A stretch of 64,000 nucleotides of DNA from Dehalococcoidia bacterium (GCA_965242665.1 OZ251484.1:1470249-1534248); one strand, 5' to 3'; positions 11,682-43,752 are shown, numbered from the stretch's first letter. Program-made: numbers and translations. The notes: generated by a model not told the origin, from the sequence alone.

Positions 11682-12148
11682 CTACTACCAAAATGGGCGG
11701 CCCAATCGAAATCCTGATGGTGGAAGACAACCCCGGCGATGTCGAACTAGCGAGAGAGGCCCTCTCCGATTGCGCGCTGCGGAAGAACCTCACGGTCGCG
11801 GAGGACGGGGAGGAGGGCCTCTCGCTCCTGCGCAGAGAAGGACGCTACCATCACGCCGCTCGCCCCGACCTCATCATCCTAGACCTGAACCTCCCGACGA
11901 TCGACGGACGAGAGGTGCTGGCGGAGATCAAGTCCGATCCCAGCCTCTACAGGATCCCAGTCGTGATTCTGACGAGCTCGCAGGACGAAAACGACATCAG
12001 GCAGACCTACGACCTGCACGCGAACGCATACGTCGTCAAACCCGTCGACCTCGACAAGTTCATGGAGGTCATCAGAGCGGTAGAAGTGTTTTGGCTCAAG
12101 TTCGCCCAGCTGCCGACGAGAGGTTCGTTCACGAACGCATCCGAATGA
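11678..12148 (+). CDS. Single-domain response regulator (CheY-like receiver)
   Basis: MTTTKMGGPIEILMVEDNPGDVELAREAL...PDLIILDLNLPTIDGREVLAEIK. Its start overlaps the kinase stop (ATGA). Confidence 0.8.
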   Translation: MTTTKMGGPIEILMVEDNPGDVELAREALSDCALRKNLTVAEDGEEGLSLLRREGRYHHAARPDLIILDLNLPTIDGREVLAEIKSDPSLYRIPVVILTSSQDENDIRQTYDLHANAYVVKPVDLDKFMEVIRAVEVFWLKFAQLPTRGSFTNASE

Positions 12149-21189: not shown

Positions 21190-21600
21190 CAAGGTAAACG
21201 GAAACCGGCTTACCGTTTACCTTTGCGGCATGGATTGCGCCCGGGCCGCAAAAGGTTGGACTCTCCGTCATTCCCGCCGGGTCTCGTCATTCCCACACCC
21301 TCCCACGTCATTCCCGCGTAGGCAGGAATCTCCTCAGGCAGCAAGAGGGCGAGACAGGCCGTTGGTGTCATTCCCGCGCAGGCGGGAATCTCCGGTATCT
21401 GCCTATGCCGCCGGATCCGACCCCCCGGTCATTCCCGCGCAGGCGGGAATCTCCGTCTACGTCATTCCCACGAAGGCAGGAATTTCTGTCATTCCCGCGC
21501 AGGCGGGAATCTCCCGTTGCGCGATTGGACGCACCGCTTTGAGAGTTGCCGTCCCCCAGCCGTCATGTCGCAAAACGGAAACCGGCGGGGCATTGACGAA
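21190..21600 (+). repeat. Composite MITE-like element: 5' hairpin, a conserved left flank, an array of gtcattccc units and palindromes, and a conserved ~90-bp right flank
   Basis: The left and right flanks are nearly identical to those of the copy at 40455-40735. They include ...gggccgcaa(a/c)aggttgga(c/t)tctccgtcattcccgccg... and ...ttgcgcgattggacgcaccgc...gccgtcatg(t/c)cgcaaaa. Confidence 0.85.
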
Positions 21601-25244: not shown

Positions 25245-25507
25245 CACGTCATTCCCACACCCTACCCACGTCTTCCCGCGAAGGCGGAAATCTCCCCCGG
25301 CTGTACCGCAAGCCAGGTCAAGTCCGCCCGTCATTCCCGCGAAGGCAGGAATCTCCCCCCGGCTGTACCGCAAGCAGGTCAAGTCCGCCCGTCATTCCCG
25401 CGAAGGCGGAAATCTCCCCGTCTGTACCGCAAGCAGGTCAAGCCCGCCCGTCTGTACCGCAAGCCAGGTCAAGTCCGCCCGTCATTCCCGCGAAGGCGGG
25501 AATCTCC
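25245..25507 (+). repeat. Repeat-element array with a ~60-bp period (four palindromes, each preceded by ccggctgtaccgcaagc(c)aggtcaagtccgccc)
   Basis: Four tandem copies of ...ctgtaccgcaagcaggtcaagtccgcccgtcattcccgcgaaggcgg(g/a)aatctcc... are visible. Confidence 0.9.
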
Positions 25508-25576: not shown

Positions 25577-26812
25577 CTACAACTCGAACGCCCCCTCCGC
25601 GGCGTCGACCACATGCCGCGCGATCTGCAAGCTCGACGTCGCAGCCGGCGACGGCGCGTTGAGGACGTGCACAGCACGAGCGCCGCGCACGATCCGAAAG
25701 TCCTGCAAGAGATTCCCACCATCGTCGACGGCCTGCGCCCGCACTCCAGCATTGGGGCGCCACAAATCCTCGCCCCGAATCTCCGGCAGCAACTTCTGCA
25801 GCGACCGAACGAAAGAACGCTTGAACAACGAACGGTACTGCTCCCGCAACCCAGTCGACCAATGCCCCATCGCCATGCGCCAAAATCCCCCATACGCCGC
25901 AGTCTCCACCGCGTCCCGCACATCGAACGACGCCTTCCCGTACCCCTCGCGCGCCAGCGCCAACACCGCGTTCGGACCTGCCTCCACGCTCCCATCGATC
26001 CGCTTCGTGAAATGCACACCCAAGAACGGCAACCGTGGATCAGGCACAGGATAGATCAAACCATTTACGAGATGCCCCCGCTCCGGCCGCAAAGAATAAT
26101 ACTCCCCCCGAAACGGTATGATACGCAGACCCTCCCCCGCGCCCATCCACCGAGCCGCCCTGTCCGCGTGAAGCCCGGCGCAGTTGATGACGTTCCCCGC
26201 CCTGAACACGCCGCCCGTCGTTTCGAGATACACCCCGTCGCCGCGCGCCTCCACGCCCAACACCCCCGTGCCAAGCCGAATCTCTCCCCCGTCCGCCGTG
26301 AAATCGTCGGCATACGCCCCGCAAACCCGCGCATAGTCCACGATCCCCGTCTCCGGCGACCATAGAGCCTTGATCCCCGCGGCGTGCGGCTCGATCTCCC
26401 GCAGACGCTCCTTGCCAATCAACTCCAACCCCTCTACCCCGTTGGCCGCCCCGCGCTCGAACAACCCATCCAGACGAGACGCCTCCTCCTCATCCGTCGC
26501 CGCAATCACCTTCCCGCACATCTCATAGTCGATGCCCCGCTCGTCGCAGTACCGACGCAGCGCCCGGTTCCCCGCATAGCAGAAATTCGCCTTCTGCGAA
26601 CCCGGCGCGTAGTATATCCCCGCATGGATGACCCCGCTGTTATGCCCCGTCTGATGCGACGCAAGCGCACCCTCCTTCTCCAAGACGACGAACCGCCGGC
26701 CAGGATGCCTCCGCGCCAGAGTCATCGCAGTCGCAAGACCGATGATCCCCCCTCCGATCACCGCAGCATCATATCGAGTCCCACTCTCACTCATTCGCAG
26801 CATCCGTGCCAA
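25577..26812 (-). CDS. lhgO: L-2-hydroxyglutarate oxidase (FAD-dependent)
   Basis: YDAAVIGGGIIGLATAM...LEKE...ASHQTGHNSGVIHAGIYYAPGS.KA.FC..GNRA aligns closely with E. coli LhgO. The start may instead be the internal M at 26794. Confidence 0.8.
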   Translation of the reverse strand: MARMLRMSESGTRYDAAVIGGGIIGLATAMTLARRHPGRRFVVLEKEGALASHQTGHNSGVIHAGIYYAPGSQKANFCYAGNRALRRYCDERGIDYEMCGKVIAATDEEEASRLDGLFERGAANGVEGLELIGKERLREIEPHAAGIKALWSPETGIVDYARVCGAYADDFTADGGEIRLGTGVLGVEARGDGVYLETTGGVFRAGNVINCAGLHADRAARWMGAGEGLRIIPFRGEYYSLRPERGHLVNGLIYPVPDPRLPFLGVHFTKRIDGSVEAGPNAVLALAREGYGKASFDVRDAVETAAYGGFWRMAMGHWSTGLREQYRSLFKRSFVRSLQKLLPEIRGEDLWRPNAGVRAQAVDDGGNLLQDFRIVRGARAVHVLNAPSPAATSSLQIARHVVDAAEGAFEL

Positions 26813-26942
26813 GTCGAAACGAATATGCCGCTATGATACCCCATGACAGATCCTCACACCGCGGCGGGTTGCCCGCACACCGGAAATCCCCCTCCCCGTC
26901 ACTCCAGCCATGCAACAGTCTCCAAATGCGGAAACCTCCCCG

Positions 26943-27569
26943 TCACTCCACCCAGCGGTACAGCGCATCCAACCCGTAATACGCCGCATACGACACCGCG
27001 AAATACTTCACCATCTTCCCCAACAAGCAAGCGCCCACGAACCTCCAGAGAGAGTAGCGCAGAGACCCCGCCGCAAATCCAGCCGCATCGAAGAACGGAT
27101 TCGGAGTCGCCGCAAACGCGAATATCGTCACCGCCCCACGCCTCTCGATCCACCCCTGAACTCGCCGATACCACCGATTCCTCCCCAACGCACGCTCCAC
27201 CGCGCCATGAGAACCCCGCCCAGCCAAATACCCCGAAACCTCCCCAATCGTCGACCCTGCAGCTCCAGACGCAGCAACCATATACGGCGCCCACCCAGGA
27301 ATCGTCGCCCCCAAAATCGCCGCCCCAAGACCAGGCACAGGCAGCACGAACGTCCCGCTGCCAACCACATTCACCAAGAATATCCCCGCATACCCCCACT
27401 CATCCAACGACGCCAACCGATCCCGAAAGACCAACGCCGCCACAGTAACCGCCGCTATCGGCAAGAACGGCGCCGCAACCCACACCCACCGCACAAACCC
27501 CCGACCCGCGCGCCCCGACGCCGATTCACTCCGACCCTCCAACTCCTCCCCCGCACAGCCCCCGCTCAT
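26943..27569 (-). CDS. DedA / SNARE-associated (VTT-domain) family membrane protein
   Basis: The segment ...GYAGIFLVNVVGSGTFVLPVPG...GAVTIFAFAATPNPFFDAAGFAAG... is the DedA signature. The ORF-track N-terminus (to 27647) overlaps the upstream gene and is Arg/Trp-rich junk, so the start is placed at MSGG... Confidence 0.65.
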   Translation of the reverse strand: MSGGCAGEELEGRSESASGRAGRGFVRWVWVAAPFLPIAAVTVAALVFRDRLASLDEWGYAGIFLVNVVGSGTFVLPVPGLGAAILGATIPGWAPYMVAASGAAGSTIGEVSGYLAGRGSHGAVERALGRNRWYRRVQGWIERRGAVTIFAFAATPNPFFDAAGFAAGSLRYSLWRFVGACLLGKMVKYFAVSYAAYYGLDALYRWVE

Positions 27570-27570
27570 C

Positions 27571-28914
27571 TCACCGCACCAACCTCCGAAACGGCTCCCG
27601 ACCAATCTCCGCCTCCAACAACGTATCCAACTCCCCCTCCAACGCACGCATGATCACACGCATCGACGCCTCCGCAGCATCCGCCGTAACCGCAATATCC
27701 TCATCCGTATGCGCCAACGTCGCCTTGAACGACGTCGGACAAAACACCCCCCGCTTCGACATCTCCTGAATGAACAGCGTATCGATCCCCTTCTTCATCG
27801 ACGGATCCGGAACCTCGAACGACAACGTCGGCGCAGTATGAAGCCCCGTAACCTCCGCAGCTATCCCCACCGAATCCACCGCACCCTGCAGCGCCGCCGC
27901 CATCTTCTCCCCAATCTCTCGAAACCGCTCCGTCGAATTCCGACGCTTCAACTCAGTGATCGTCGACACAGACGCCGCAAGACCAATGTTGTCGCTCCAA
28001 TACGAACTCGATATGAACATCCGGTCCGCAGGCTCCATCGCCTCACGCGAACCCACCACACAACCCATCGCATACCCATTCGACATCGCCTTCGCAAACA
28101 CCGACATATCCGGCGTCACCCCAAGCCACTCCTGAACGCTCCCCAACGATATCCGCCACCCAGACGAAACCTCATCGAAGATCAGCAGCGCCCCATTCGC
28201 ATGACACAACGCCTTCACCTCCTCCAAATACCCCTCCCTCGGACGCTCCGAACGCATCGGCTCCATCATCACCGCCGCCACCTCCCCCTCATGCTCACCG
28301 AACAACCCCCGCAAATTCTCGATGTCCCCATAGATGAACGGAACCGCCGTCCCCGCCAACGCACGAGGAACCCCAATCGGCTCAATCCCCGCAAACGGAA
28401 ACTCCCCAGACTCCGGATCCACCAAATAGTTCGCAGACTGATACCAATCATGCCAACCGTGATACCCCGAAAACAACACCTTGTCCCTCCCAGTCGCCCC
28501 CCGCGCTATCCGCACAGCCACCGCGCAAGACTCCCCTCCACCCTTCGTATACCGCACCATCTCCGCGCTCGGAATCGTATCCACCAACAACTCCGCAAGC
28601 TCGATCTCCAACGGACTGTTCAACGTAAACAAACTCCCCCGACCCACCTGCTCCCGCACAGCGCCATCCACCACATCATCCGCATGACCCAAGATGATCG
28701 CCGTCACCGCGTTCACCCAGTCGATATACTCGTTCCCATCCACATCCACGAACCGCGACCCCTTCGCACGCTCCGCATAGATCGGACTAATCGGATGAGC
28801 AAAACTGCTCGCCCTCCGACTAATCAACTGCGTCTTCCCCGGTATCAGCGTCTCCGCCCGCTCATACAACTCCAACGACCGTCCAACCCGACTCTCTCCC
28901 GATGCCATACCCAC
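27571..28914 (-). CDS. Class-III (PLP-dependent) aminotransferase, glutamate-1-semialdehyde aminomutase-like
   Basis: A 447-aa protein with ...GYHGWHDWY... and a PLP-Lys region ...VFAKAMSNGYAMG.... It lies in an operon with dedA and lhgO. Confidence 0.75.
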   Translation of the reverse strand: MGMASGESRVGRSLELYERAETLIPGKTQLISRRASSFAHPISPIYAERAKGSRFVDVDGNEYIDWVNAVTAIILGHADDVVDGAVREQVGRGSLFTLNSPLEIELAELLVDTIPSAEMVRYTKGGGESCAVAVRIARGATGRDKVLFSGYHGWHDWYQSANYLVDPESGEFPFAGIEPIGVPRALAGTAVPFIYGDIENLRGLFGEHEGEVAAVMMEPMRSERPREGYLEEVKALCHANGALLIFDEVSSGWRISLGSVQEWLGVTPDMSVFAKAMSNGYAMGCVVGSREAMEPADRMFISSSYWSDNIGLAASVSTITELKRRNSTERFREIGEKMAAALQGAVDSVGIAAEVTGLHTAPTLSFEVPDPSMKKGIDTLFIQEMSKRGVFCPTSFKATLAHTDEDIAVTADAAEASMRVIMRALEGELDTLLEAEIGREPFRRLVR

Positions 28915-29040
28915 TCCCTCCTTACAAGAAATCTCCCTCGCCCCTCATCCACCACACACCCCATCACCCCCACATTCTACCACACCCCGCACAACAGCGC
29001 CCAAGCTCCCTGCTCCAATGTAAAAAGCGACGATGTGTCT

Positions 29041-29300
29041 CCCGTCATTCCCACCCACGTCTACGTCACTCCCGCACCGCCTACGTCATTCCCACCCATG
29101 TCTACGTCATTCCCGCGAAGGCGGGAATCTCCCCCTCATACCACACAACCCCCACGTCCGGCACATCCTGCACCGCCTCCCGTCATTCCCACACCCTCCA
29201 CGTCACTCCTGCACCGCCCACGTCATTCCCACAACACACCCACGTCATTCCCGCGAAGGCGGGAATCTCCCCAATCGACAATCAGAAATCACAAATCATC
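29041..29300 (+). repeat. Repeat-element array (two palindromes plus about eight gtcattccc units), followed by the secondary caatc(g/a)acaatc repeat
   Basis: Read directly from the intergenic region. Confidence 0.9.
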
Positions 29301-29760
29301 AATCCCCCTCCACCGCCTCATACACCCTCACCCCCCTCCTGCTCACAGCCCGCAGCCGTCCCTCCCTCTCCAACGACCGCATCGCCCCCTGAACCGCCGG
29401 CGCGCCATGCCTCCGAAACTTCCCCATGATCTTCCCCTGCGCCTTCGGACGCTCGCAATACTCCAACACCTGCTCCGCAAGCAAATCATCCACCTCAGGA
29501 AGCGCCGAACGCGGCACGACCAACGTAACCCCCGCGTTCCCATCCACATCCTCCCCAAACATGTACTCCAACCGACCCTCATGCCTCCGCAAGAACGCCC
29601 GCAAACGCTTCCGCAGCACGCCCCCCACCCCGCTCGCGCCGTACCCATGCACCACCTCCAATCCTCCCCCAGACCGACGCAGCGCCCCGTTATACGCCTC
29701 AATGAACGCAGGCAGCGCCTCCGACCACGTCTGCCCATGCAAATCCAACGTCTCCATCAC
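29299..29760 (-). CDS. Smr-domain protein
   Basis: METLDLHGQTWSEAL carries the LDLHG motif that is diagnostic of Smr (MutS2 C-terminal-like) nicking-nuclease domains. Confidence 0.7.
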   Translation of the reverse strand: MMETLDLHGQTWSEALPAFIEAYNGALRRSGGGLEVVHGYGASGVGGVLRKRLRAFLRRHEGRLEYMFGEDVDGNAGVTLVVPRSALPEVDDLLAEQVLEYCERPKAQGKIMGKFRRHGAPAVQGAMRSLEREGRLRAVSRRGVRVYEAVEGD

Positions 29761-29825
29761 TCCCTACCCCCGCAAAACTACTCCGCCCCTACGCATCCAC
29801 CCATCACTGCCCCAAATCTGCCCAC

Positions 29826-29893
29826 GCCACTCCCGCACCGCCTACGTCATTCCCACAACACTCACGTCATTCCCGCGAAGGCGGGAATCTCCC
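29826..29893 (+). repeat. Repeat element (units plus a palindrome)
   Basis: The sequence reads cactcccgcaccgcctacgtcattcccacaacactcacgtcattcccgcgaaggcgggaatctcc. Confidence 0.9.
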
Positions 29894-29912
29894 CCCCATA
29901 CTACCACCCCCC

Positions 29913-30626
29913 TCACGGCCTGCACACCTTGCAACCCACAACATCCCGCCCCGTCTCCCCAGCCCGCCCAAAAGCATCCTCCCGAGAACCAAACGGCCCA
30001 TGCCACTCATTCTCATGGACATTGATAGGACCGCGCTTCCTACCTTGCCAGTACGTGCAAGTCTCCCTGTGAACCCGCGCATAGTTGTATATCTTCTCCT
30101 CGTACACCCCGTAACCCACGGCACTCCCATCCGGTGCCGGTTGCCGCGGCGGAACGCCCGGCTGCAGATTATCCCGTATCCTCTCCACCTCCCGCTTCTC
30201 CTCCTCCGCACCAATCCGCCCAAGCACCTCGGCAAAGTCTGTCAACCGACTCTCCACGTACCGCACGGACAAGTCTTTCCCACCCGGGTGCGAGGACTCG
30301 TTTCGCGCGTCCACGATCACGCGAACCAAGTTCAAAGACGACCGGTCGTGCTCAAACGCAGATCCGAAAACATCCTTCCAATAGAGGTCGACGATGTGGG
30401 GAATGGCGTTGAGGTCTATCGCCCCCTCGACCCCTTCTCCGCGCCGGCGGCGCCGTTGGAACGCCTTCCGCCCAGCATCATTCAAAGACGACCGTATCGC
30501 CTCCTCCGCCCCATCGCCGAAAACACACCGCATATGCCGCACGACGAACGCACGCATCGCATCCCGAAAGATATCCACCGCCCGATTCAGCGCATCCCTA
30601 TTCGGTCGCTCCCTCATCGTACTCAC
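29913..30626 (-). CDS. Swt1-like HEPN-domain protein with a conserved Cys/His-containing C-terminal domain that is shared with the SPFH protein downstream
   Basis: The N-terminal half contains ...VRVIVDARNESSHPG..., an Rx4H HEPN motif in a Swt1-like context. The C-terminal ~65 aa, YGVYEEKIYNYARVHRETCTYWQG...EWHGPFGSREDAFGRAGETGRDVVGCKVCRP, is paralogous to residues ~270-340 of the 562-aa neighbour. A GTG start follows a GGAGG ribosome-binding site. Confidence 0.6.
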   Translation of the reverse strand: MSTMRERPNRDALNRAVDIFRDAMRAFVVRHMRCVFGDGAEEAIRSSLNDAGRKAFQRRRRRGEGVEGAIDLNAIPHIVDLYWKDVFGSAFEHDRSSLNLVRVIVDARNESSHPGGKDLSVRYVESRLTDFAEVLGRIGAEEEKREVERIRDNLQPGVPPRQPAPDGSAVGYGVYEEKIYNYARVHRETCTYWQGRKRGPINVHENEWHGPFGSREDAFGRAGETGRDVVGCKVCRP

Positions 30627-30649
30627 CAGCCGAACGCCTCCAACGAATA

Positions 30650-30697
30650 CTCACTCCCGCACCCTCCCCGTCATTCCCGCGTAGGCGGGAATCTCCC
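30650..30697 (+). repeat. Repeat element (single palindrome copy)
   Basis: The sequence reads ccgtcattcccgcgtaggcgggaatctcc. Confidence 0.9.
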
Positions 30698-30764
30698 CAC
30701 GGCCGGCACGCCCCTCACCCAACGCGCCGTCTCCGGCAACTACCCAAATATAAACGAGGCTGAC

Positions 30765-30908
30765 TCAGGACATCATGACACCGACGATACCAAACACGAT
30801 GGCCAAGGCCCCTATTATGAGAAAAGCACCGCGGCCCCAGATCCTCCAACCAATGGCAGCGATAAAAAGCCCCCCAACTATGGACAGTGCGAATGTGTCG
30901 TATCCCAT
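30765..30908 (-). CDS. Small (47-aa) hydrophobic membrane peptide
   Basis: The minus strand reads AAAGGAGGATCAA-ATG GGA TAC GAC ACA ..., giving MGYDTFALSIVGGLFIAAIGWRIWGRGAFLIIGALAIVFGIVGVMMS. It has a near-perfect ribosome-binding site and lies in the lower-GC patch. It is below the 60-aa cutoff of the ORF track. Confidence 0.45.
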   Translation of the reverse strand: MGYDTFALSIVGGLFIAAIGWRIWGRGAFLIIGALAIVFGIVGVMMS

Positions 30909-31156
30909 TTGATCCTCCTTTCCGATTTCAAGAATTTCTCCTGAACATTAGTAAGGAATTATATACCAGCGCATCACAATAGTCAACCACGCAAGCATTG
31001 ATCCATTTAATGTATTGGCGTAGGTTACCCCTACAAAACTCGCGGTACCTACCCCCTTCCCTGACACATTCTCCAATAGAAAGGCTTTGAACTGTATAAC
31101 ATCTGCTTCCCTCTTTCAGAAAAGTAGAGCCCTACTCACCATAAACGCAATGCCTA

Positions 31157-32845
31157 CTATGGCAAGTAAGACGCAATCCGGGCTAGCGCGAACGGCATCG
31201 TCAATATGCAAATCAATAGAAGGAGTGCTGCTATCTTCAGAAATGCGTCTTTCTCTGTGGACACCCCGACTGACGCGGCGATTAAACTCAGAACGAATAT
31301 CCCAGCGTATATCTGCAGCGGAAGAAGGGCCACAACAATGACCACAACAATGACCACCCCCACCAGCACCCCGCAACCAGCGATATAATAACCTAGACTT
31401 AGTCCCTTATGGCCAGAATCCGAGACTTCATCCGTGGCGCTCGGACTCCTCTTCCAACTGCGAGGTGGGTTATTGCGTGAGATGACTTCATCCGTACCGC
31501 TTGGATTCCTCGGTCTCATGTCCGAGGAACTGCGGCGGCGCAAATGTTCCTGCCTGCGCGGCGGCGTATAGTACGACGCATTGGCCTGACCGCCGTGGTC
31601 TGGCGGCGGCTCGTTAGAAACCGCCCCCGAGTTCTCCCTCAATGTTCGAGAAATCCGCACGTCAGCGCCCCCGTGCACACGTGCGAAAGAAATCCGATAG
31701 GTGACGTTTCTTCCGTCCAAATAATAAGACGTCCTACGCGAATGCGGATCGGTCGTATGAAACATGCGGTTGTATTTGGGTATCTGTTTCCTCACCCAAT
31801 CCGGCACATTCTGCATAGATTTCCTTCCATTCTTGAACGAGTAACCAATCTCTTCCCACTCTCCATCGACGCTATGCGGCCTACATACCTTGCACCCTCG
31901 AACATCCTTTTGCCCCGTCGCCTCCGCCCTCCGAAACGCCTCCTCCAGAGACCCATACGGCCCGTACCACTCGCTATCGCCCGGAATCCGCCCGCGCCCC
32001 ATACCCGCGCCGTGATTGCAGTAACGACACCCCCCATCATGAACCTTCGCCTGACTGGTCACCCGATCCTCATACACCCAGTAACTGGAGCCAAGTGTCG
32101 GCGGTGTTGCGGGAGGTATCACAGGCGGGGCGGGCGAATCACGCCGCGGCTTGCGCTCGGTAACTTCGTCAACCTCATGCCGCCGCTTGATCTCCCGCAA
32201 CTCCTCCTCATGCCGCCGCTCCCTAATCCGCTCCCGCTCCTCCGACGTCAACCCCCAGTTCACCGTGAAATTGTCCAACCGCAGACCGTAGAACCGAATC
32301 GTCGACGCCAGCTCGATGTTCACCGACTCGTAGATCCCCCGAAACAACTCCCGATTCCCCCGCAACTCCTCCGCCGTGTACCTGTGAATATCCAACGCCA
32401 GCACCTTGTCCAACAACTCGTCCTTGATCACATCCGAAACGTCCCGCCTCGTGACGACACCGCTCCCCGGCCGCAGCTTCATCAGATGCTCCACGTTCTC
32501 CCGCACGACCCGCATCGTAAGGACAAGCCTCCCAGTCACCGCCTCGTCGTCCGACGTCAGCACCGGCTGCCCCAGCACGACGCCGTCATCAGGCTCCTCC
32601 CGATCCATCGGATCCATCAGCCAAAACGTCAGGGTAAACGGCGCAGTAGAAGCCACATACGTCCGAACCTCCCCCTTCCCAGGCAGATTTCGCTTCCCCG
32701 ACTCGAACACGTCCACCACTTCCCCGTCCTGGATCACGATCCCAATCTGAAAGGGCATGACCGTCAGCGACCATCGCACGCCAAGGAACCCAGCGCTCGG
32801 CCACGCCTCCCGCAATATCGCATCGTCTCGCATTCCCTCGTTCAT
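31157..32845 (-). CDS. SPFH/band-7-like domain membrane protein with a coiled coil, the shared Cys/His C-terminal-type domain, a disordered segment and two C-terminal TM helices
   Basis: The start is placed at MNEGMRDD, which has a GGAGAGG ribosome-binding site. The ORF-track start at 32884 lacks one. The N-terminal ~230 aa look SPFH-like (...VSDVIKDELLDKVLALDIHRYTAEELRGNRELFRGIYESVNIELASTIRFYGLRLDNFTVNW + EERERIRERRHEEELREIKRRHE). The mid domain SYWVYEDRVTSQAKVHDGGCRYC...EWYGPYGSLEEAFRRAEATGQKDVRGCKVCRP matches the HEPN protein's C-terminus. The C-terminal TM helices are hydrophobic. Confidence 0.6.
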   Translation of the reverse strand: MNEGMRDDAILREAWPSAGFLGVRWSLTVMPFQIGIVIQDGEVVDVFESGKRNLPGKGEVRTYVASTAPFTLTFWLMDPMDREEPDDGVVLGQPVLTSDDEAVTGRLVLTMRVVRENVEHLMKLRPGSGVVTRRDVSDVIKDELLDKVLALDIHRYTAEELRGNRELFRGIYESVNIELASTIRFYGLRLDNFTVNWGLTSEERERIRERRHEEELREIKRRHEVDEVTERKPRRDSPAPPVIPPATPPTLGSSYWVYEDRVTSQAKVHDGGCRYCNHGAGMGRGRIPGDSEWYGPYGSLEEAFRRAEATGQKDVRGCKVCRPHSVDGEWEEIGYSFKNGRKSMQNVPDWVRKQIPKYNRMFHTTDPHSRRTSYYLDGRNVTYRISFARVHGGADVRISRTLRENSGAVSNEPPPDHGGQANASYYTPPRRQEHLRRRSSSDMRPRNPSGTDEVISRNNPPRSWKRSPSATDEVSDSGHKGLSLGYYIAGCGVLVGVVIVVVIVVALLPLQIYAGIFVLSLIAASVGVSTEKDAFLKIAALLLLICILTMPFALARIASYLP

Positions 32846-33003
32846 ATCGCCTCTCCAGTCATTCCTACCACTTGCCTGCCCCAACCCTCCCCCCAGTCAC
32901 ACGGCCCGGCCATCCCACCGCCCCGGCACAGGCCGGAGCCCGGCCCCCGCCGAACTCCCACGCACGCCAGAGCGGCGAAACACCGATCCCTGCCGTCATT
33001 CCC

Positions 33004-33567
33004 TCAAACGCGCGAACCTACCCCATCGCCCTCCGCCTTCTCCCGCGCCGCAAGCTCGATCTCCGCCCGCGCACGGTCGAACTCCGCGCCCCGCTCGAAC
33101 TTCACATCGTCCGCGTCCGGCTCCAACATGCGCACGATAGTCTCCAGCTTGTTACCCGACTCCTTCGTGCTGACCGCGATCGCATCCAACTGATCCTCCA
33201 GCGCCTCCTCGTCCAACTCGTTGATCCGCTTCCAAACCCCACGCTTCTCCAACTCCCGCTTCATCCGAAGCACGTCCATCGCAGCATCCAACGCCGCCAT
33301 CCGCGTAATCGTCCGCTGCAAATCCGCCTCCGACCTCGTCTTCCGCTTGGACGCGATCGACATCTGGTACGCATGAACATCACGCTCCGCACTGCCCACG
33401 CCCGGATCCGAAGCCAACCCCAACCGCCGGTCGTACTCCTCCTGCAGCCGCTTGATACCCCGCAACTGCTTGTCCTGCTCCACCTCCTGAACAGCCCGCT
33501 CCTTCCGCAACTCCCCCATCTTCAGATCCTCCAACCTCTTCGCCCTGCCAAATCCCAGTATCCCCAT
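33004..33567 (-). CDS. PspA/IM30/ESCRT-III (Snf7)-superfamily-like coiled-coil protein
   Basis: A 187-aa, charged and heptad-rich protein. The N-terminus MGILGFGRAKRLEDLKMGELRKERA resembles the PspA (MGIFSRF...) and Snf7 N-termini. An AGGAGG ribosome-binding site lies upstream of the ATG. Confidence 0.45.
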   Translation of the reverse strand: MGILGFGRAKRLEDLKMGELRKERAVQEVEQDKQLRGIKRLQEEYDRRLGLASDPGVGSAERDVHAYQMSIASKRKTRSEADLQRTITRMAALDAAMDVLRMKRELEKRGVWKRINELDEEALEDQLDAIAVSTKESGNKLETIVRMLEPDADDVKFERGAEFDRARAEIELAAREKAEGDGVGSRV

Positions 33568-33636
33568 GTCATCTCCTCCTTTTCTCGTTCTTCGTCCTAC
33601 GTTCTCGCCGCGTTCGCGCTATGTTCTCGCCCCCCA

Positions 33637-33797
33637 TCATTCCCACACCCGTCTACGTCATTCCCGCGTAGGCGGGAATCCACACCCCCCGTCATTCCCT
33701 TCGCCATCCCGGTCGTCCCCTTTCTCCAACGTCATTCCCACACCCGTCTACGTTATTCCCGCACCCACCCCCGTCATTCCCGCGCAGGCGGGAATCC
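33637..33797 (+). repeat. Repeat-element array (two palindromes plus gtcattccc units)
   Basis: Read directly. It lies between the helix-turn-helix gene and the PspA-like gene. Confidence 0.9.
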
Positions 33798-33806
33798 ACG
33801 CCCCCA

Positions 33807-34328
33807 TCACCACACACCCTTGTCTGTCCGCTTGATGATCTTCATCTTCTGACCATCCCGATCCTTCATATCCGACTCGATGATCCGCTTCTCCTTCCGC
33901 AGCAACTCCACAGCCTCCCGCACCGCGTCCTCCCCAAAATCCTCGTTGAGATGAGCGATCAAGAGCACTGTCCGCCCCCCCCGGGTCAACATATCATTGA
34001 TAGCGTTCTTGCACGACTTCACCAACGCCGCGCGCTCCTCCTCGTCCATCTCCCGCACCCGCCACCGCGTCGGCTCCAAATCCACATCCGGCGTAATCGG
34101 CACCTTTGACCCTCCCCCCGACCGATGCCCCTCCAACCACTCATCCACCTCCGACCGCCGAAACCTCCACGCCGAACCCAACTTGAACGCAGGAATCTTG
34201 CCCTCCTGCGCCCAACCATATATCGTACGCTCGGACATGCCCAAATACCGCGACACCTCCGCCAACGACATCAACCCAGGCACGCCCGCGCTCCCTCCGC
34301 TATCTCCCACGATCACTCCTGCCAACAC
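33807..34328 (-). CDS. Excisionase-family helix-turn-helix (HTH_17-type) DNA-binding protein with a ~110-aa C-terminal domain of unknown function
   Basis: LMSLAEVSRYLGMSERTIYGWAQEGKIPAFKLGSAWRFRRSEVDEWL is a canonical HTH_17/excisionase-type helix-turn-helix. The start is uncertain: GTG at 34328, or the internal M at 34271. Confidence 0.6.
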   Translation of the reverse strand: MLAGVIVGDSGGSAGVPGLMSLAEVSRYLGMSERTIYGWAQEGKIPAFKLGSAWRFRRSEVDEWLEGHRSGGGSKVPITPDVDLEPTRWRVREMDEEERAALVKSCKNAINDMLTRGGRTVLLIAHLNEDFGEDAVREAVELLRKEKRIIESDMKDRDGQKMKIIKRTDKGVW

Positions 34329-34514
34329 CAGATTTCCCGCAGCTCATGTCACCCCGCAGCCAACTATGACACCATACAACAACCAATATCATACATCTCA
34401 ACCTCATGTCAAGCTATGTCAAGAAATAGCAAACCCCCAAAATCTCCACTCCCCAAGAAATCCCCGAACCACCCCACCTCCAACCCAACCCCCGTCTACC
34501 TACCGCCACCTCCC

Positions 34515-34668
34515 CCATCATTCCTGCACCCCGTCTACGTCATTCCCGCACCCCGTCTACGTCATTCCCGCACCCGTCTACGTCATTCCCGCGTAGGCGG
34601 GAATCCCCAACTCCCACCCACCTACCGCCTCCACTCACCCACGTCATTCCCGCGTAGGCGGGAATCCC
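34515..34668 (+). repeat. Repeat-element array (two palindromes plus four units)
   Basis: Read directly from the intergenic region. Confidence 0.9.
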
Positions 34669-34682
34669 CAACCCCCACCCAT

Positions 34683-35768
34683 CTACCGCCTCCGCAGCAA
34701 GTAGATACTCGGCGCGATATACCCCCGATGAAACGACACCCGCAGCGGAACCTCCGCCGCACGCCTCCACAACCCGCCATGCCGCGCAAGCGCCGCCTCG
34801 AACAGCCGCCGACGCGCAGTGTACGCCGCAAAAGCCCCCCCAGAACGCACCAACCGCCCAGCCTCCTGCAGCGCAGCGTCATACAGCTCATCCAACCCTT
34901 CTCCCCTGTTCCTCGCCATCCCAAACGGAAGATCCGACGACGCCGTGTCGAACGACCCATCCCGCAGCGGCGCCCGCCGCATATCCCCGCGCAGAAGCTC
35001 CACCTCTCCCAACACGCCCGCAGCAGCCACATTCTCCCGCGCGCACGCCAACGCCCCCGCATCCGCATCCACCCCAACGATCCGTCCCGCCCCGCCAACC
35101 GCCGCCCGCTCGATCGGCAGCGTCCCAGAACCGCACCCCAAGTTCACGAACCGCTCCCCCATACCATCCCCGGGCAGCATCACCATCGCGTGCGCAATCG
35201 TAGCATTCATCGCATCCGACCGATTGCACACCCGCCAAGCCCGCGCAGACAGCGGCATCGGCGTCAACCGAATCAGCGCCTCCCATCCAACTCCGCCCCC
35301 CGCCCTGCGAATCGACACATTCAAGTGACCCGCATCCTCTCGATCCTCCAACCCAAAGACCGACGCAATCTCGCCCCGCAACCGCCGCAGCACACTCGAG
35401 TTCGAACCCGCCGCCCGAACGCGGAGCGTCCGAAACGACCCAGCCGGATGCATCCCCATCACCCGCTCGATCGACGCCGCCAACCGCGTGAAACTCTCAT
35501 GCCCCAGCAGAGCCCTCGGACGCGGCGCGTCGAACCGCTCCACCGCATGAACCGCCGCCGCGCTCCGCAGACCCAGCAGCGAACCCGCAGGCCCCCCGTA
35601 CCTGATCGACAAACGCCCCTCTCGATGGATCCCCAGCGAGCGGTACCCCCGCCTGCCCAGCTCCCTCGACAACTCGTCGTCGACGAACCGCTCCAACCCG
35701 CTAACGAGCTCGATCTCATACCGATCGAAGACGTCGGACGAAGCGCTGTCGATTCCGCGGCGAGACAT
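34683..35768 (-). CDS. THUMP-domain class I SAM-dependent RNA methyltransferase
   Basis: An N-terminal THUMP-like region is followed by the methyltransferase motif I VNLGCGSGTLPIE and the (D/N)PPF-like motif SDLPFG. Confidence 0.7.
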   Translation of the reverse strand: MSRRGIDSASSDVFDRYEIELVSGLERFVDDELSRELGRRGYRSLGIHREGRLSIRYGGPAGSLLGLRSAAAVHAVERFDAPRPRALLGHESFTRLAASIERVMGMHPAGSFRTLRVRAAGSNSSVLRRLRGEIASVFGLEDREDAGHLNVSIRRAGGGVGWEALIRLTPMPLSARAWRVCNRSDAMNATIAHAMVMLPGDGMGERFVNLGCGSGTLPIERAAVGGAGRIVGVDADAGALACARENVAAAGVLGEVELLRGDMRRAPLRDGSFDTASSDLPFGMARNRGEGLDELYDAALQEAGRLVRSGGAFAAYTARRRLFEAALARHGGLWRRAAEVPLRVSFHRGYIAPSIYLLRRR

Positions 35769-35880
35769 GACCCGTACTATCCTACCCTACCCACGCCACA
35801 TGCGCTCGACCGCTCGATACGCTATAATACAGACCCAGCCTCCGCGGTAGCCCCGGAGAGTCCCGCATTGAGAGCGTGAG

Positions 35881-36315
35881 ATGCCAACGGTTTTCGTCCC
35901 CCCATTGATGCAAAAACTCACGGACGGCAAGCCCACCGTCCCAGTACAAGGCAAATCCGTCCGCGAAGTGATCGACAACCTCGACCACGCGTACCCGGGC
36001 GTGAAAGCCCGCCTCGTCGACGGCTTCAAACTCAAACCAAACATATCCGTCGCCGTAGACGGAGAAGTCAGCCCCATAGGAATGCTCCAAAGAGTCCAGG
36101 AAGATAGCGAAGTCCACTTCCTGCCCGCGATCGGAGGCGGAAGCCAGACGAAGCCGCCGCGCGCGAAAAGTTCCCCAACGCCCACTCCTGCACCGCAGGA
36201 CAAGCAAGCAGCCTCCTCGACCGCATCCTCGCAAAGAACACGGTGTAGCGCGCTGAACCCCGCCCTCCTCGAAACCGACCGACGCGCATCCATGGAAATA
36301 CCTCCGCCGCGATAA
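35881..36315 (+). CDS. MoaD/ThiS-family ubiquitin-like sulfur-carrier protein with a ~55-aa extension beyond the Gly-Gly
   Basis: The β-grasp pattern ...VAVDGEVSP...SEVHFLPAIGGG is followed by an S/P/T/Q-rich tail up to the stop. Confidence 0.55.
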   Translation: MPTVFVPPLMQKLTDGKPTVPVQGKSVREVIDNLDHAYPGVKARLVDGFKLKPNISVAVDGEVSPIGMLQRVQEDSEVHFLPAIGGGSQTKPPRAKSSPTPTPAPQDKQAASSTASSQRTRCSALNPALLETDRRASMEIPPPR

Positions 36316-36434
36316 GCCATACCGAATATGACCCCCTGGCAAGCTCCCACCAGTCCCGTTGTATGCGCTATAATGAGACCGCGCAGCCGAGCAGCGCAAG
36401 CGCCAAAGAAACCATCCCCGTCCGGAGAAGATAC

Positions 36435-37358
36435 ATGACAGGCCTACACTTCCAAGGAGTCATCGCACCAATAGTCACGCCTCTAACCCCAGACGAGCGC
36501 GTCGACGCATCATCCCTGCGCCGCCTGGTCAACTACCTGATCGATTCAGGCGTGCACGGAATATGGGCCGCGGGGACGAACGGCGAATTCGCCGCACTCC
36601 GAGACGACCAACGCCTCCTCGCCATCGAAACCATAGCCGAAGAAGCCGACAGACGCGTCCCCGTCATCGGCAACGTCTCCGCCCCAGGCACGGCCGCAGC
36701 CATCGACCTCGCCCGCTCCCTGGCCGGATCCAAACTCGACGGCATCGCAGCCACTCCCCCCTACTACTACCACTACGACCAAGCAGAACTCTCCAACCAC
36801 TTTCGCGCAATCAACGCCGCATCCGAACACCCCCTCTGGATATACAATTTCCCGGCCATGACCAAACTCACCGTGGAGCCCCCAACGATCGCCGACCTGG
36901 CAGCCGACGGCGCTGTCGTCGGCGTGAAAGACTCGTCCGGCGCAGGAGAAGCCCTGGCCGAACTCGTCACCATCTGCGACCGGCGCTGCATCGACCTCTA
37001 CCGCTTCCTCGGCTCAGTCTACCGCGCCCCCGCCGCCAAGCGAGTCGGAGCCCACGGCGTAATACCAGGTATCGGAAACCTCGCCGCAACCTCCATCTCC
37101 AGCGCATGGGAAGCAGGAGAAGCAGGCGACAGCGCGAAAGCGGCCAAACACCTCGACGCAGCCATCGAAGCCCAACGAGTCACCCGCCTCGCACAATCCG
37201 GCGGAAGAAACGCCGCCGCCGCTTCCGGAATCAAGGCCAGCCTCAAGATCATGGGCATCATCGAACACGACACGGTAACGTCCCCAATGCGCTCCCTCAC
37301 CAAAGAAGAGAAAGCGTTGATACCCCCCATCCTTCGACGCGCAGGACTGATGAACTAA
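36435..37358 (+). CDS. DapA/NAL-family aldolase (paralog 3)
   Basis: MTGLHFQGVIAPIVTPLTPDERVD...GTNGEFAAL...YNFPAMT... A TATAAT -10 element lies at 36381-36386. Confidence 0.75.
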   Translation: MTGLHFQGVIAPIVTPLTPDERVDASSLRRLVNYLIDSGVHGIWAAGTNGEFAALRDDQRLLAIETIAEEADRRVPVIGNVSAPGTAAAIDLARSLAGSKLDGIAATPPYYYHYDQAELSNHFRAINAASEHPLWIYNFPAMTKLTVEPPTIADLAADGAVVGVKDSSGAGEALAELVTICDRRCIDLYRFLGSVYRAPAAKRVGAHGVIPGIGNLAATSISSAWEAGEAGDSAKAAKHLDAAIEAQRVTRLAQSGGRNAAAASGIKASLKIMGIIEHDTVTSPMRSLTKEEKALIPPILRRAGLMN

Positions 37359-37406
37359 CCCCAAAAACGACTCTGCCCCCAAACTTGCCGTCGACGGCTC
37401 CAGAAG

Positions 37407-37415
37407 TGGTATAAT
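37407..37415 (+). promoter_or_regulatory. Extended -10 promoter element TGGTATAAT upstream of rpsU
   Basis: tggtataat lies ~50 nt upstream of the TTG start. A possible -35 element ttgccg lies at 37385-37390. Confidence 0.45.
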
Positions 37416-37467
37416 GGAACTCGACGCGGCCTACCAACCGCACGATTCGCATTGGAGAAGAAAGAAT

Positions 37468-37656
37468 TTGGCACATGTAACACTCCGTGACGGAGAAGAC
37501 GGCGATCAGCTTCTGAAACGCTTCCAAACCCAGATGCAGCGGTCCGGAATCCTCCGTGAACTGCGGAACAGAAAGTTCTTCAGATCGAGAGGAGAACAAA
37601 AACGCCTCGACAAGGCACGGAGCCTCCGGAGAATTCGCAGACGACGCAGCCGGTAG
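37468..37656 (+). CDS. rpsU: 30S ribosomal protein S21
   Basis: A 62-aa basic protein (AHVTLRDGEDGDQLLKRFQTQMQRSGILRELRNRKFFRS..KRL.KAR). It has a TTG start with a GGAGAAG ribosome-binding site. Confidence 0.85.
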   Translation: MAHVTLRDGEDGDQLLKRFQTQMQRSGILRELRNRKFFRSRGEQKRLDKARSLRRIRRRRSR

Positions 37657-39454: not shown

Positions 39455-39790
39455 CCCCCCACGTCATTCCCGCGCAGGCGGGAATCCAACCCCCCACGTC
39501 ATTCCCGCGCAGGCGGGAACCCACCGCACCGAATTTGACACAACAGAACCCACGTACTACCATAGACCCATGACCACTCCAACAAAACCACAGCCCAAGG
39601 AGCCACCTTGCAACCCCCAATCATCAATCTGCAACCTGCAATCATCAATCGACAATCTGCAATCACAGATTCCACGCCCCCGTCATTCCCGCACCCTCCC
39701 ACGTCATTCCCGCGCAGGCGGGAATCTAGCACTCTGCAACCCCCAATCATCAATCGACAATCATCAATCATCAATTCCCCCCTCTCGCCC
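39455..39790 (+). repeat. Cluster of palindrome elements plus the secondary repeat tgcaacccccaatcatcaatcgacaatc
   Basis: Three ...gtcattcccgcgcaggcgggaa... copies are present. The 28-bp motif is repeated twice. Confidence 0.9.
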
Positions 39791-41402: not shown

Positions 41403-42533
41403 TCAAGGTCCTCCGCGCCGCCGACGCCCCATAATCCTGTTGCGCTTGGCCCCTTCCGACCGGTTCTTCGCTAGTTCCGCGACTGACGGGTAGCGTCGTT
41501 TGGCGCGCTTACTCCCTGCCGACCGCTTCCCCCCAAGTGGATAAGGTTGTTTGAACGACTTGTTCCGCTCTCCGTCTTTTGTGAGCCTCCACCTGTAGGC
41601 GTCCAGGAAAAGTCCATCCACAATTCGTACAGTGTTCGGTGGACAAGGTATCTTGAAGTCCAGGTCAAGCTTGCCATCAAAAGTGAGAACCCAGCGATCC
41701 TTGTCCAAGGGGCGTCTGTCCACGATATACATCGTGTTAGGCGGATATGGCTGCTCGTACTGCTTGTCGCGTTTGCCGTTGGAGTCAAGTAGTCGGCCGG
41801 CGGCATCCAGGGAATGTCCATCCACAACCCACTTCGTGCCGCGCGGGCGCCCCCCGTACCCCTTGTGGCGCTTGCCGCTCTTGGTAAGTACATACCCAGC
41901 GGCGTCCACACGCATCCCATGTACAAACTCACGGGTTTGATTCTTGGGGGGTTGCACAGGAGGTTTTTTACCAGGTTCCCTCCCCTTGTCTACTAGATTG
42001 ACGCCTTGCCTCCATAGAACCGTTGCCCGCAGGCAATCATCAACCGCGGATTCTGCCATCAGATCGAAGGAGGTTTTCAGTTTCTTGTCCATGAACCCCT
42101 TTTCGCACGCGTCGTAGATGTACCAGTGACGACCGTTTGTCACAGCGAGATACTGCACTTCGGCTGCGAGGCAATAGCCGATACCCTGTATCGCCGCGTC
42201 TCGAAGGCGAAGGGTTTTCGATGGATTCCCAGTTTCTGGCATACCCTCTAGGGGTGTGCTTTCCACGGGGTCTGAGATCCTCTTTGCCTCTATCAGAACC
42301 GCAGGCTTCTGCTCACCGTCCTTGAAGAGGGCGTAGTCTACTTTACCGCGTCCTACCGAGTACTGGCGTCTCACCTGTGACAAGTCATCGGTAGCCCATC
42401 CCAACTCTCGAAGCAACGGGTCGATCAGAACGGAGCAGGTATTCGCCTCGTCCCACGTCCGCCCGTCGGGGTTAGCATTGATTTGCTCCCTGAGCTTCTC
42501 GATCTGTAACCACAGATTCTCCTCAACCGACAT
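41403..42533 (-). CDS. PD-(D/E)xK (HsdR-N-like) nuclease-domain protein with C-terminal ~33-aa repeats (paralog C)
   Basis: The segments ...CSVLIDPLLRELGW..., ...VDYALF... and ...AVLIEAKR... form the type I restriction enzyme R-subunit N-terminal (HSDR_N-like) PD-(D/E)xK core. A conserved promoter/leader shared with the two paralogs lies upstream. Confidence 0.6.
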   Translation of the reverse strand: MSVEENLWLQIEKLREQINANPDGRTWDEANTCSVLIDPLLRELGWATDDLSQVRRQYSVGRGKVDYALFKDGEQKPAVLIEAKRISDPVESTPLEGMPETGNPSKTLRLRDAAIQGIGYCLAAEVQYLAVTNGRHWYIYDACEKGFMDKKLKTSFDLMAESAVDDCLRATVLWRQGVNLVDKGREPGKKPPVQPPKNQTREFVHGMRVDAAGYVLTKSGKRHKGYGGRPRGTKWVVDGHSLDAAGRLLDSNGKRDKQYEQPYPPNTMYIVDRRPLDKDRWVLTFDGKLDLDFKIPCPPNTVRIVDGLFLDAYRWRLTKDGERNKSFKQPYPLGGKRSAGSKRAKRRYPSVAELAKNRSEGAKRNRIMGRRRRGGP

Positions 42534-42605
42534 TCCCGCAGACCCCCTTCTCATCTCCTGCGCATTCTACCACAGCCGCCCTCGCCGCTCCCGACTCACA
42601 CAGTC

Positions 42606-43652
42606 TTATCGCCGCGGGCGTGGTGAGGGTTCATCTGTGGTGGAAGGATATATCTTCCACGGATGAGTAGCTGGTTTGGAGTAAGGCTCAGGATAGCCAC
42701 GAGCGCGCTGATGGCGCGTGTTCTGTTTGGTGAGTATGTAGCCGTCGGCATCCAGATAGTGTCCATCCTCAATCCGCACGGCACTAGGCGGATAGGGATT
42801 AGGTCTGCGTTTGTGGATCCGTTGGTCCGGCTCGCCACTGGCTGTGAGTACGAAGCCGTCGGCGTTCAGGAAACGCCCATCCACGATTCGCTTGGTGTTC
42901 GGCGGCAAGGGGTTCTTGAATTTCCCGTCTCGTCTGCCTTTGGGTGTGATTACCCTCCCATCCTCGTTCACGGGATATCCATCCACGATTCGCTTCGTGC
43001 TCGGCGGGTACGGCTTCTTGTAGTTCTCGTCTCGTTCGCCGTCGGGGTTGAGAACGAAGCCGTCGGCGTCTAGATGATGTCCATCTACAACCCGTTTCGT
43101 GCCGGGAGGTTGTCCACGGTTCTCGTCCTTGGGCTTACTGTCTGGCTGTATCGTCCCCCTGGTTGCTGGGCCGCGCGGTTGCAACTCACGCGCCCTTAGA
43201 CAATCCACAGCTGCAGTCGGAGACTTCAGATCAAATTCTACGACCCGCTTTTCGCTGAGCGGAACCTGCTTGTGCGTATCGTAGACTTCCCACCGCTGTC
43301 CGTCCGTCACAGCGAAGTGTGATATTGCCTGTGGAGCGCAGTACTCTAGTCCTTGGGCGGCCGCACGTTGGAGGTCTTCCGATAGTTTCTTGGCTTCGAT
43401 TACCACAGCAGGCCTCTCTCGACCGTCGTTGAAGAGTGCATAATCTCCCCATCTATCACTCCTACCAGGCACCTCCAGCTTATACTCGGGTTTCACCTGG
43501 GCCCGGTCCCCGGTGTCCCAACCCATCCCCTGCAACAACGGATCGATGAGCGCGTACCTGGTTGCCCACTCGCTTTTCGCAAGTTCCTCCCCATGATCAT
43601 CGATACGCTTCTTGAGCGTCTCGATCAGTCCCTGTAGCTCCTTGACGTTCAT
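42606..43652 (-). CDS. PD-(D/E)xK (HsdR-N-like) nuclease-domain protein with four C-terminal ~33-aa repeats (paralog A)
   Basis: MNVKELQGLIETLKKRIDD...TRYALIDPLLQGMGWDT...DYALF...AVVIEAKK. The repeats read KRIVDGxxLDADGFVLTxxGxxDxxYKKPYPP. Confidence 0.6.
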   Translation of the reverse strand: MNVKELQGLIETLKKRIDDHGEELAKSEWATRYALIDPLLQGMGWDTGDRAQVKPEYKLEVPGRSDRWGDYALFNDGRERPAVVIEAKKLSEDLQRAAAQGLEYCAPQAISHFAVTDGQRWEVYDTHKQVPLSEKRVVEFDLKSPTAAVDCLRARELQPRGPATRGTIQPDSKPKDENRGQPPGTKRVVDGHHLDADGFVLNPDGERDENYKKPYPPSTKRIVDGYPVNEDGRVITPKGRRDGKFKNPLPPNTKRIVDGRFLNADGFVLTASGEPDQRIHKRRPNPYPPSAVRIEDGHYLDADGYILTKQNTRHQRARGYPEPYSKPATHPWKIYPSTTDEPSPRPRR

Positions 43653-43752
43653 TCCCGCAGAACCCCCTTGTCATCTCCCGCGCATTGTACCACGCCGCTT
43701 CCGCAACCGCTACATCCTCCTCGCTCCCGCGCACATTCTACCACAGCCGCCC

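Follow-up and report, generated by a model that had tools for sequence, protein, structure and literature searches.

A 64,000-nucleotide (nt) stretch of Dehalococcoidia bacterium DNA (hereafter the window; all coordinates are counted from its first letter) contains, between positions 29299 and 34328, six open reading frames (ORFs), all on the minus strand, which a first-pass annotation made from the sequence had grouped into one membrane-associated stress or defence module. All six were found at the coordinates given there. Their products were examined with Pfam profiles, read against the curated cut-offs, and with NCBIfam, PHROGs and PADLOC-DB v2; exact-sequence look-ups of the window proteins returned no record, and the analysis is built on homologues. 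Four of the earlier labels proved sound, with Pfam scores above cut-off in each case. The excisionase-type helix-turn-helix (HTH) protein matched HTH_17 (PF12728; 67.4 bits vs a cut-off of 27, E 1.3e-18) as well as TIGR01764 'excise' (58.2 vs 28.8 bits), and carries a C-terminal extension of ~100 amino acids (aa); the SPFH protein matched Band_7 (PF01145; 26.8 vs 23.6 bits, E 6.2e-6, residues 42-209), and many of its homologues carry a precomputed PF01145 match; the HEPN protein matched HEPN_Swt1 (PF18731; 33.7 vs 27.5 bits, E 5e-8); and the Smr protein matched Smr (PF01713; 50.7 vs 25.7 bits, E 2.1e-13). The two remaining products—a helical-hairpin protein, termed CC187 here, and a small hydrophobic peptide of 47 aa—had no match in Pfam, NCBIfam, PHROGs or PADLOC.

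The part of this locus that is conserved as a unit is smaller than six genes. We compared the six window proteins by tblastn with 12 SPFH-seeded genome loci (related loci are cited below by L numbers); in species-representative genomes, all relatives were found in Dehalococcoidia metagenome-assembled genomes. An HTH_17 gene followed by the 187-aa gene lies directly upstream of the SPFH gene in 9 of the 11 assessable loci (L004-L011 and L013), with intergenic gaps of ~10-45 nt in several SPFH-seeded loci and with flanking genes that vary from one locus to another. A metagenome scan, seeded with a five-sequence subset of distant members of the 187-aa family, yielded 32 marine loci with a guanine-cytosine (GC) content of 37-59%. 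Here, each of the 29 loci with sufficient upstream sequence had the HTH gene immediately ahead of the hairpin gene, and an SPFH-domain gene followed downstream in 11 of the 12 with enough downstream sequence. Because the same three genes are co-conserved in the SPFH-seeded Dehalococcoidia loci and in the marine metagenome loci, the conserved unit is a three-gene operon—HTH_17, hairpin and SPFH—across marine Chloroflexota. The six-gene module of the first-pass annotation therefore holds for this triad and not for the other three genes, whose status is described below. No second copy of the triad was present in the window. L013 (8963-14608) holds a decaying copy of the module, in which split tblastn segments mark frameshifts in both the HTH and the SPFH gene. 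Homologues of the HTH protein align from its residue 17-20, which makes the ATG at 34271 the probable true start. MAD1 of the MADS system (NF047737) was considered as an identity for this protein and rejected, at 72.8 bits against a cut-off of 80, and no other MADS component was found among the PADLOC matches.

The HEPN gene is a recurrent but lineage-specific partner of the triad. The genomic contexts in which SPFH and HEPN genes adjoin each other are four: the window-type locus, seen also in L014, L016 and L019 (twice in L019); loci flanked by restriction-modification (R-M) genes and lacking an HTH or hairpin gene (L017 and L053); L002, with one SPFH-X gene and, behind it, three HEPN-X genes in tandem; and L003, in which a PaREP1-type HEPN gene overlaps the start of the SPFH gene by 4 nt. 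The X in these names refers to a domain of ~65 aa common to the SPFH and HEPN proteins (BLASTP 3e-18). It follows a β-β-(short helix)-β-α-β order with invariant residues H17, C21, C66 and C69 (alignment A4), and is predicted to be a small zinc-binding domain. Domain X was detected in 29 of the 36 HEPN matches and in 31 of the 114 SPFH matches, and a further domain, Y, gave a local hidden Markov model match in 33 of the 114 SPFH homologues; both X and Y frequencies are biased upward because the SPFH list was retrieved with the full-length query, X and Y included. An alternative C-terminus, DUF4268, likewise occurs on both SPFH and HEPN proteins. Elsewhere, the usual fusion partners of DUF4268 are GmrSD restriction enzymes (PMC4619093). 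In L054 (1-9086), a HEPN_Swt1-DUF4268 fusion stands beside genes for a tyrosine integrase, Rep3, a GmrSD restriction enzyme and Hypoth_Ymh; the HEPN-DUF4268 combination is therefore also carried by a mobile element that has no SPFH gene.

The HEPN protein itself looks catalytically competent, because the Rx4H motif pointed out in the first-pass annotation (R108...H113 in 'DARNESSHPG', read as R-N-E-S-S-H) has both residues invariant in 26 homologues, and because the best structural matches of a two-domain HEPN model were AbiF (PbAbiF, 8vz6) and Swt1. Fold searches on the HEPN-X model returned HEPN-type or generic helical matches only, and did not place domain X. A HEPN-MNT pairing was looked for, and no nucleotidyltransferase domain was found in the six window proteins or in the called neighbours in L014, L016 and L019. 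The genes neighbouring the related loci include type IIG/ISP R-M genes, an AAA_21 and DUF4276 pair, PIN, a Uma2 endonuclease and an NfeD-like protease. In L003, two 86-aa ORFs lie directly after the HEPN-SPFH pair (11159-11778) and, by sequence, look like a DUF433 / DUF5615-type toxin-antitoxin pair.

The SPFH protein is built from a constant N-terminal domain and exchangeable C-terminal parts. The N-domain is common to all 114 homologues (40-100% identity), and their C-termini are mutually unrelated, comprising ankyrin repeats, PQQ and PD40 β-propellers, Excalibur, DUF4268, and transmembrane (TM), X and Y modules. In the window protein, a charged helical stretch (EERERIRERRHEEELREIKRRHE) comes after the SPFH domain, followed by X, Y and the C-terminal TM helices already proposed in the first-pass annotation, which we also see in the sequence as a hydrophobic module. 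The putative anchor sits at the C-terminus rather than at the usual N-terminal position, and many paralogues are without any TM segment. The TM module has homologues in 12 of the 114 SPFH paralogues, and a detached copy forms a 112-aa ORF in L001 (7e-11). In the marine loci, the SPFH domain often has a Ser/Thr kinase fused to its N-terminal side and PD40/LRR, OpuAC, PKD or double-zinc-ribbon domains on the C-terminal side; six loci (L024, L028, L029, L039, L041 and L047) carry kinase-SPFH-sensor fusions of 1,000-1,450 aa, with PD40 and LRR or with OpuAC, downstream of the hairpin gene, and a PP2C phosphatase gene is inserted ahead of the kinase gene in L037. We know of no earlier description of kinase-SPFH fusions. 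The SPFH proteins of marine Chloroflexota emerge as a family in the course of diversification, whose sensor, adaptor and kinase modules can be swapped.

The hairpin protein had been labelled PspA/Snf7-like, and the two halves of that label fared differently. The CC187 family is small: of 1.84 billion proteins, 72 representatives were recovered at E <= 1e-3. Its members are marked by the motif MGILGFG+AK.LEDLK, invariant at the N-terminus, and by a GVW motif. An AlphaFold2 model (predicted local distance difference test score 81) shows the N-terminal motif ahead of a long α-hairpin (residues 17-52 and 59-101), which is followed by short helices; the motif suggests membrane binding. An identity as PspA was rejected: 44 diverse family members matched no Pfam family consistently and none matched PspA_IM30 (PF04012) or Snf7 (PF03357), a PDB profile search returned neither PspA nor Vipp1, and hhalign gave a probability of 1% against E. 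coli PspA and of 0.2% (score 12.9) against PspA and Vipp1 combined. Against a profile of Snf7, CHMP4B and CHMP3, with template sequences verified against the PDB, the family scored 28.5 (E 1.2e-3, probability 19.5%, 129 collinear columns), compared with 17.0 for a reversed alignment, 19.2 for the best of 30 block-shuffles, and 32.8 for the positive control, ESCRT-III vs PspA/Vipp1 in equally thin alignments. The hairpin tip and a 'D..KVDE.MDEI'-like α4 segment are in register in this alignment. CC187 is therewith weakly suggested to be a remote relative of Snf7-type ESCRT-III proteins. This assignment is plausible and, if true, would be of note for the evolution of ESCRT-III, because the family would be bacterial and yet stand nearer to Snf7 than to PspA.

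The two other genes are less firmly attached. The Smr domain spans residues 5-82, with 'LDLHG' and 'VHGYG' motifs and a C-terminal region of ~70 aa behind it. An Smr gene with 87% aa identity occupies the same place beside an aminotransferase gene in L019; in L013, near the degraded triad, it is split by an insertion sequence, the interrupting 568-aa ORF being a putative transposase. In L014 and L016, the gene is absent, though both flanks are shared with the window. Smr is thus a facultative neighbour. The 47-aa ORF is an orphan rather than a conserved component: no homologue was found in any locus examined or outside this genome, where it forms a singleton cluster, and its resemblance to the SPFH TM module (E ~0.1-0.8) is driven by composition only. 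The ribosome-binding site assigned to it is real (AAGGAGG, 6 nt upstream of the ATG). Related loci have other small membrane ORFs at its position, including the detached TM module of L001. In L014 (6291-6635) and L016 (11043-11399), this slot holds a single-pass membrane protein of 114-118 aa whose soluble part resembles domain Y by eye (W.KIG.G..GVP.WVR..., ...YRYKIVLKG). This likeness, if real, would suggest that C-terminal modules of SPFH proteins can exist as separate genes.

The genes lie in a mosaic variable island, in line with the accessory character attributed to them earlier. Compared with L014 and L016, the flanks (window 34580-37500 and 26001-29172) are 95-97% identical; inside, the HTH, hairpin, SPFH N-terminal, Y and HEPN segments are 81-93% identical, and the X, TM/47-aa and Smr segments are absent from both loci. 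The breaks in synteny coincide with clusters of a hairpin repeat, ATTCCCGC-N4-GCGGGAAT, which is often preceded by tandem units of ~21 nt (GGGAATGACGTAGACGGGTGC). The mobile repeat said to separate the six genes is real, with 22 copies in the window vs 0 expected, all intergenic and within 6144-40641, and eight of them between 29109 and 34665; it is, however, a genome-wide element resembling repetitive extragenic palindromes, not one particular to this cluster. Its placement suggests a role in recombination. An alternative role of the repeats as intrinsic terminators was rejected, as they have no T-run and terminator-like structures occur at chance level. A prophage or phage origin was likewise rejected: PHROGs matches were confined to the generic HTH, and no relatives were found on viral contigs. 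The low-GC patch noted earlier was confirmed (0.47-0.50 at 30750-31500, against ~0.60-0.65 in its surroundings). The features of the locus are collected in Table 1.

Table 1. Genes, protein domains, promoter-like sites and repeat clusters at the locus, in window coordinates.
Feature	Position	Strand	Remarks
HTH_17 protein	33807-34328	-	173 aa ORF
Hairpin protein CC187	33004-33567	-	187 aa ORF
SPFH protein	31157-32845	-	562 aa from ATG; 575 aa if upstream TTG is used
SPFH/Band_7 domain	32141-32845	-	aa 1-235; Pfam Band_7 match
Domain X, SPFH protein	31877-32089	-	aa 253-323; common to HEPN protein
Domain Y, SPFH protein	31634-31870	-	aa 326-404; common to SPFH paralogues; no Pfam match
C-terminal TM module, SPFH protein	31187-31432	-	aa 472-553; ~three helices; hydrophobic sequence; within low-GC patch
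Small hydrophobic ORF	30765-30908	-	47 aa
HEPN protein	29913-30626	-	237 aa ORF
HEPN_Swt1 domain	within 29913-30626	-	aa ~8-152; Pfam; Rx4H
C-terminal domain X, HEPN protein	29916-30113	-	aa 172-237
Smr protein	29299-29760	-	153 aa ORF
Promoter-like site TTGACA-16-GATATT	34385-34412	-	upstream of HTH gene; consensus scan
Promoter-like site TTGACT-17-TATAAT	30958-30986	-	11/12 matches; upstream of 47-aa ORF and HEPN gene; consensus scan
Hairpin-repeat cluster	29043-29272	.	right edge of island; repeat families D1-D4
Further repeat clusters in island	29818-29894, 30651-30698, 33628-33820, 34509-34690		each gene cassette bounded
Repeat clusters elsewhere in window	21310-21510, 25333-25503, 39466-39725		

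Two further observations concern the surroundings of the island. Between 24000 and 40000, strand bias is strong, with a plus-strand GC skew of -0.2 to -0.6 and a G-rich coding minus strand, and this bias creates long antisense ORFs that are spurious, for example 27709-30072, with 787 aa and a high content of P, R, H and T. At 41403-44571, three paralogous genes in tandem on the minus strand (376, 348 and 272 aa) share the motif 'ALIDPLL.ELGW'; the genes found at this position in L001 and L016 have faint matches to HSDR_N / HSDR_N_2, the N-terminal part of the type I restriction R-subunit, and the trio may represent a further expansion of accessory or defence-related genes close to the island.

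Taken together, we tentatively favour the view, with confidence a little short of even, that the triad and the HEPN-X protein are coupled via domain X into a membrane-linked module whose stress or defence function we infer. The coupling is favoured because SPFH and HEPN genes adjoin each other in four contexts and have domain X or DUF4268 in common. According to this model, the SPFH protein would oligomerise at the membrane, and the hairpin protein would assemble on it or with it; domain X would act as an adaptor, docking the HEPN ribonuclease (RNase) to the SPFH-hairpin assembly via X-X contacts. Membrane perturbation or invasion could then release or activate RNA cleavage, leading to growth arrest or abortive infection, with expression under the control of the HTH protein. 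The C-terminal part of the SPFH protein would supply freely exchangeable sensor, anchor or adaptor modules, and Smr and the 47-aa ORF would be optional cargo of the variable island rather than core components. A bolder form of the same idea strikes us as unlikely. It describes a bacterial immune or stress-suicide system in which an SPFH cage and a divergent Snf7-like ESCRT-III protein would sense membrane integrity, with the HEPN protein tethered by zinc-binding X (interchangeable with DUF4268) and with damage or phage entry triggering RNA cleavage; the hairpin family would then form a new branch of ESCRT-III closer to Snf7 than to PspA.

Several results weigh against such a coupling. The marine triads contain no HEPN gene, and the RNase link is therefore lineage-specific; conversely, L002, L003, L017 and L053 combine SPFH and HEPN genes without an HTH or hairpin gene, so that triad and HEPN pair can exist separately. 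The best match of domain X, to DUF6233 (8e-4), is below the cut-off, and no sequence relative of the domain was found in the PDB; the upward bias in its frequency among SPFH homologues points the same way. Moreover, co-transcription of the window genes is uncertain, because they are spaced by 150-250 nt with hairpin repeats in the gaps and because a second promoter-like site precedes the 47-aa ORF and HEPN gene. The total of promoter-like sites (three found vs 1.9 expected) is not above chance, and their positions alone are suggestive. Finally, the defence reading draws on the R-M and toxin neighbours at related loci, but PADLOC-DB v2 recognised no known defence model: the HTH protein alone gave a generic match (mad1, 2.6e-9), and the SPFH, hairpin, HEPN and Smr proteins gave none. 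Rfam, searched over 27000-37000, returned no RNA family, with no sign of a type III-like noncoding RNA antitoxin among the curated families.

The main rival to this interpretation takes the triad as a housekeeping operon for Psp-like envelope stress or membrane organisation, and the HEPN, Smr and small-ORF genes as unrelated selfish or accessory arrivals in a recombination-prone, repeat-bounded region, with no coupling between them. The genome-wide repeat around each cassette, the varying presence of Smr and the 47-aa ORF between syntenic relatives, the marine triads free of HEPN, the HEPN-DUF4268 gene found beside GmrSD, integrase and Rep3 without SPFH, and the separate promoter-like site ahead of the 47-aa ORF and HEPN gene all suit this account. 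It nevertheless leaves unexplained why X or DUF4268 should be common to precisely the SPFH paralogues and the HEPN proteins adjoining them, and why the two genes should meet in four contexts, including a 4-nt overlap with a HEPN gene of a different family; we regard it as somewhat unlikely.

We hold it to be quite unlikely that the locus serves signalling alone. In such a scheme, the SPFH proteins would be membrane-proximal receptors sensing ligands through their variable domains (PD40, LRR, OpuAC, PKD, ankyrin, PQQ and, in marine relatives, a Ser/Thr kinase), and the hairpin protein would relay the signal to the HTH protein by sequestration, in the manner of PspA and PspF, with neither membrane remodelling nor defence involved. 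The marine proteins with a Pkinase domain N-terminal to SPFH and sensor-type domains at the C-terminus fit this picture, as do the PP2C phosphatase inserted in one locus and the HTH-hairpin pair, which is conserved more strictly than any other part of the module. The window SPFH protein, however, has X, Y and TM modules only, with no kinase or recognisable ligand-binding domain; a HEPN partner with a common domain X finds no role; and sequestration of the regulator is pure analogy. A six-gene anti-phage abortive-infection system, in which HEPN and Smr would both serve as nuclease effectors, appears very unlikely. It could appeal to two nuclease-type domains with intact catalytic motifs, to the proximity of Smr and triad in three loci and two contexts (the window and L019; L013), and to the R-M and toxin neighbours. 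Yet L014 and L016, where the locus is otherwise shared, lack Smr; the 47-aa ORF is an orphan; and all six genes occur together in the window alone among the loci. In addition, PADLOC gave no match, viral contigs yielded no relative, and Smr proteins of the standalone kind also serve housekeeping functions, in ribosome rescue.

Should the coupling of SPFH and HEPN proteins through domain X be real, it would be the first case in which a nuclease effector is wired to an SPFH scaffold and to a protein resembling ESCRT-III, converting membrane surveillance into growth arrest at the RNA level. No paper linking SPFH to HEPN, or to anti-phage defence as a system, was found in the searchable literature, the coverage of which is incomplete and no proof of novelty. 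The analysis also defines three uncharacterised and directly testable modules—the ~180-aa hairpin family, zinc-binding domain X (as predicted) and domain Y.

Known systems offer partial parallels to this arrangement. In NTPase-centred conflict systems, some with Band7-like scaffolds, a core protein and the effector encoded next to it carry the same effector-associated domain (EAD; PMC7159879). The window locus has in common with these a small non-enzymatic domain on scaffold and adjoining effector, together with strong architectural diversification; unlike them, it has no vWA-MoxR, GTPase or STAND NTPase core, and X is not among the described EADs so far as tested. The likeness to SPFH-NfeD operons lies in an SPFH protein encoded with membrane partners, and L019 does have an SDH_protease/NfeD1b_N gene; no NfeD occurs among the six window proteins or at most related loci, however, and the conserved partners are HTH_17 and the hairpin protein instead. 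The HEPN protein resembles RNases of the Abi2/AbiF/Swt1 clade (PMC3710099; 8vz6) in its HEPN fold, conserved Rx4H motif and occurrence in variable loci near R-M genes. It differs in that we detected neither a noncoding RNA antitoxin nor an MNT partner nor a fusion to AAA+ here, and in its C-terminal X (or DUF4268), which is common to the SPFH proteins—a pairing not found in the searchable literature.

Further parallels are found among ESCRT-linked SPFH proteins. In the archaeal 'Meth_adaptin' loci (PMC10936438), SPFH proteins with a coiled coil and zinc ribbon occur with ESCRT-III-family proteins and a ProX/OpuAC-type neighbour; correspondingly, one marine relative of the window protein fuses OpuAC to SPFH and another a double zinc ribbon. 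In contrast to those loci, the module is bacterial (Chloroflexota), no Vps4 ATPase, adaptin appendage or other ESCRT component was seen, and the relationship of the hairpin protein to ESCRT-III is weakly indicated. Operons joining PspA/ESCRT-III and Band-7 proteins are documented as well (PMC8581546; PMC11237479; PMC10936438). Compared with PspA-Band-7 operons such as pspA-ydjGHI of B. subtilis, with its SPFH protein YdjI, the window locus lacks YdjG/H, PspB/C and Toastrack partners, its hairpin protein is not detectably PspA, its regulator is of the excisionase-type HTH_17 family, its SPFH domain occupies the very N-terminus, ahead of C-terminal modules that are hypervariable, and, in this lineage, a HEPN RNase is attached. 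The shared features are a helical-hairpin protein of ~180-220 aa encoded beside SPFH, membrane-anchoring partners or modules, zinc-ribbon or other C-terminal additions on the SPFH protein and, in some cases, a dedicated regulator (ClgR, PspF). By analogy, the triad resembles the documented pairing of a PspA/ESCRT-III protein, a Band-7 protein and a dedicated regulator, and the locus may be viewed as a version of that theme joined to an RNase effector.

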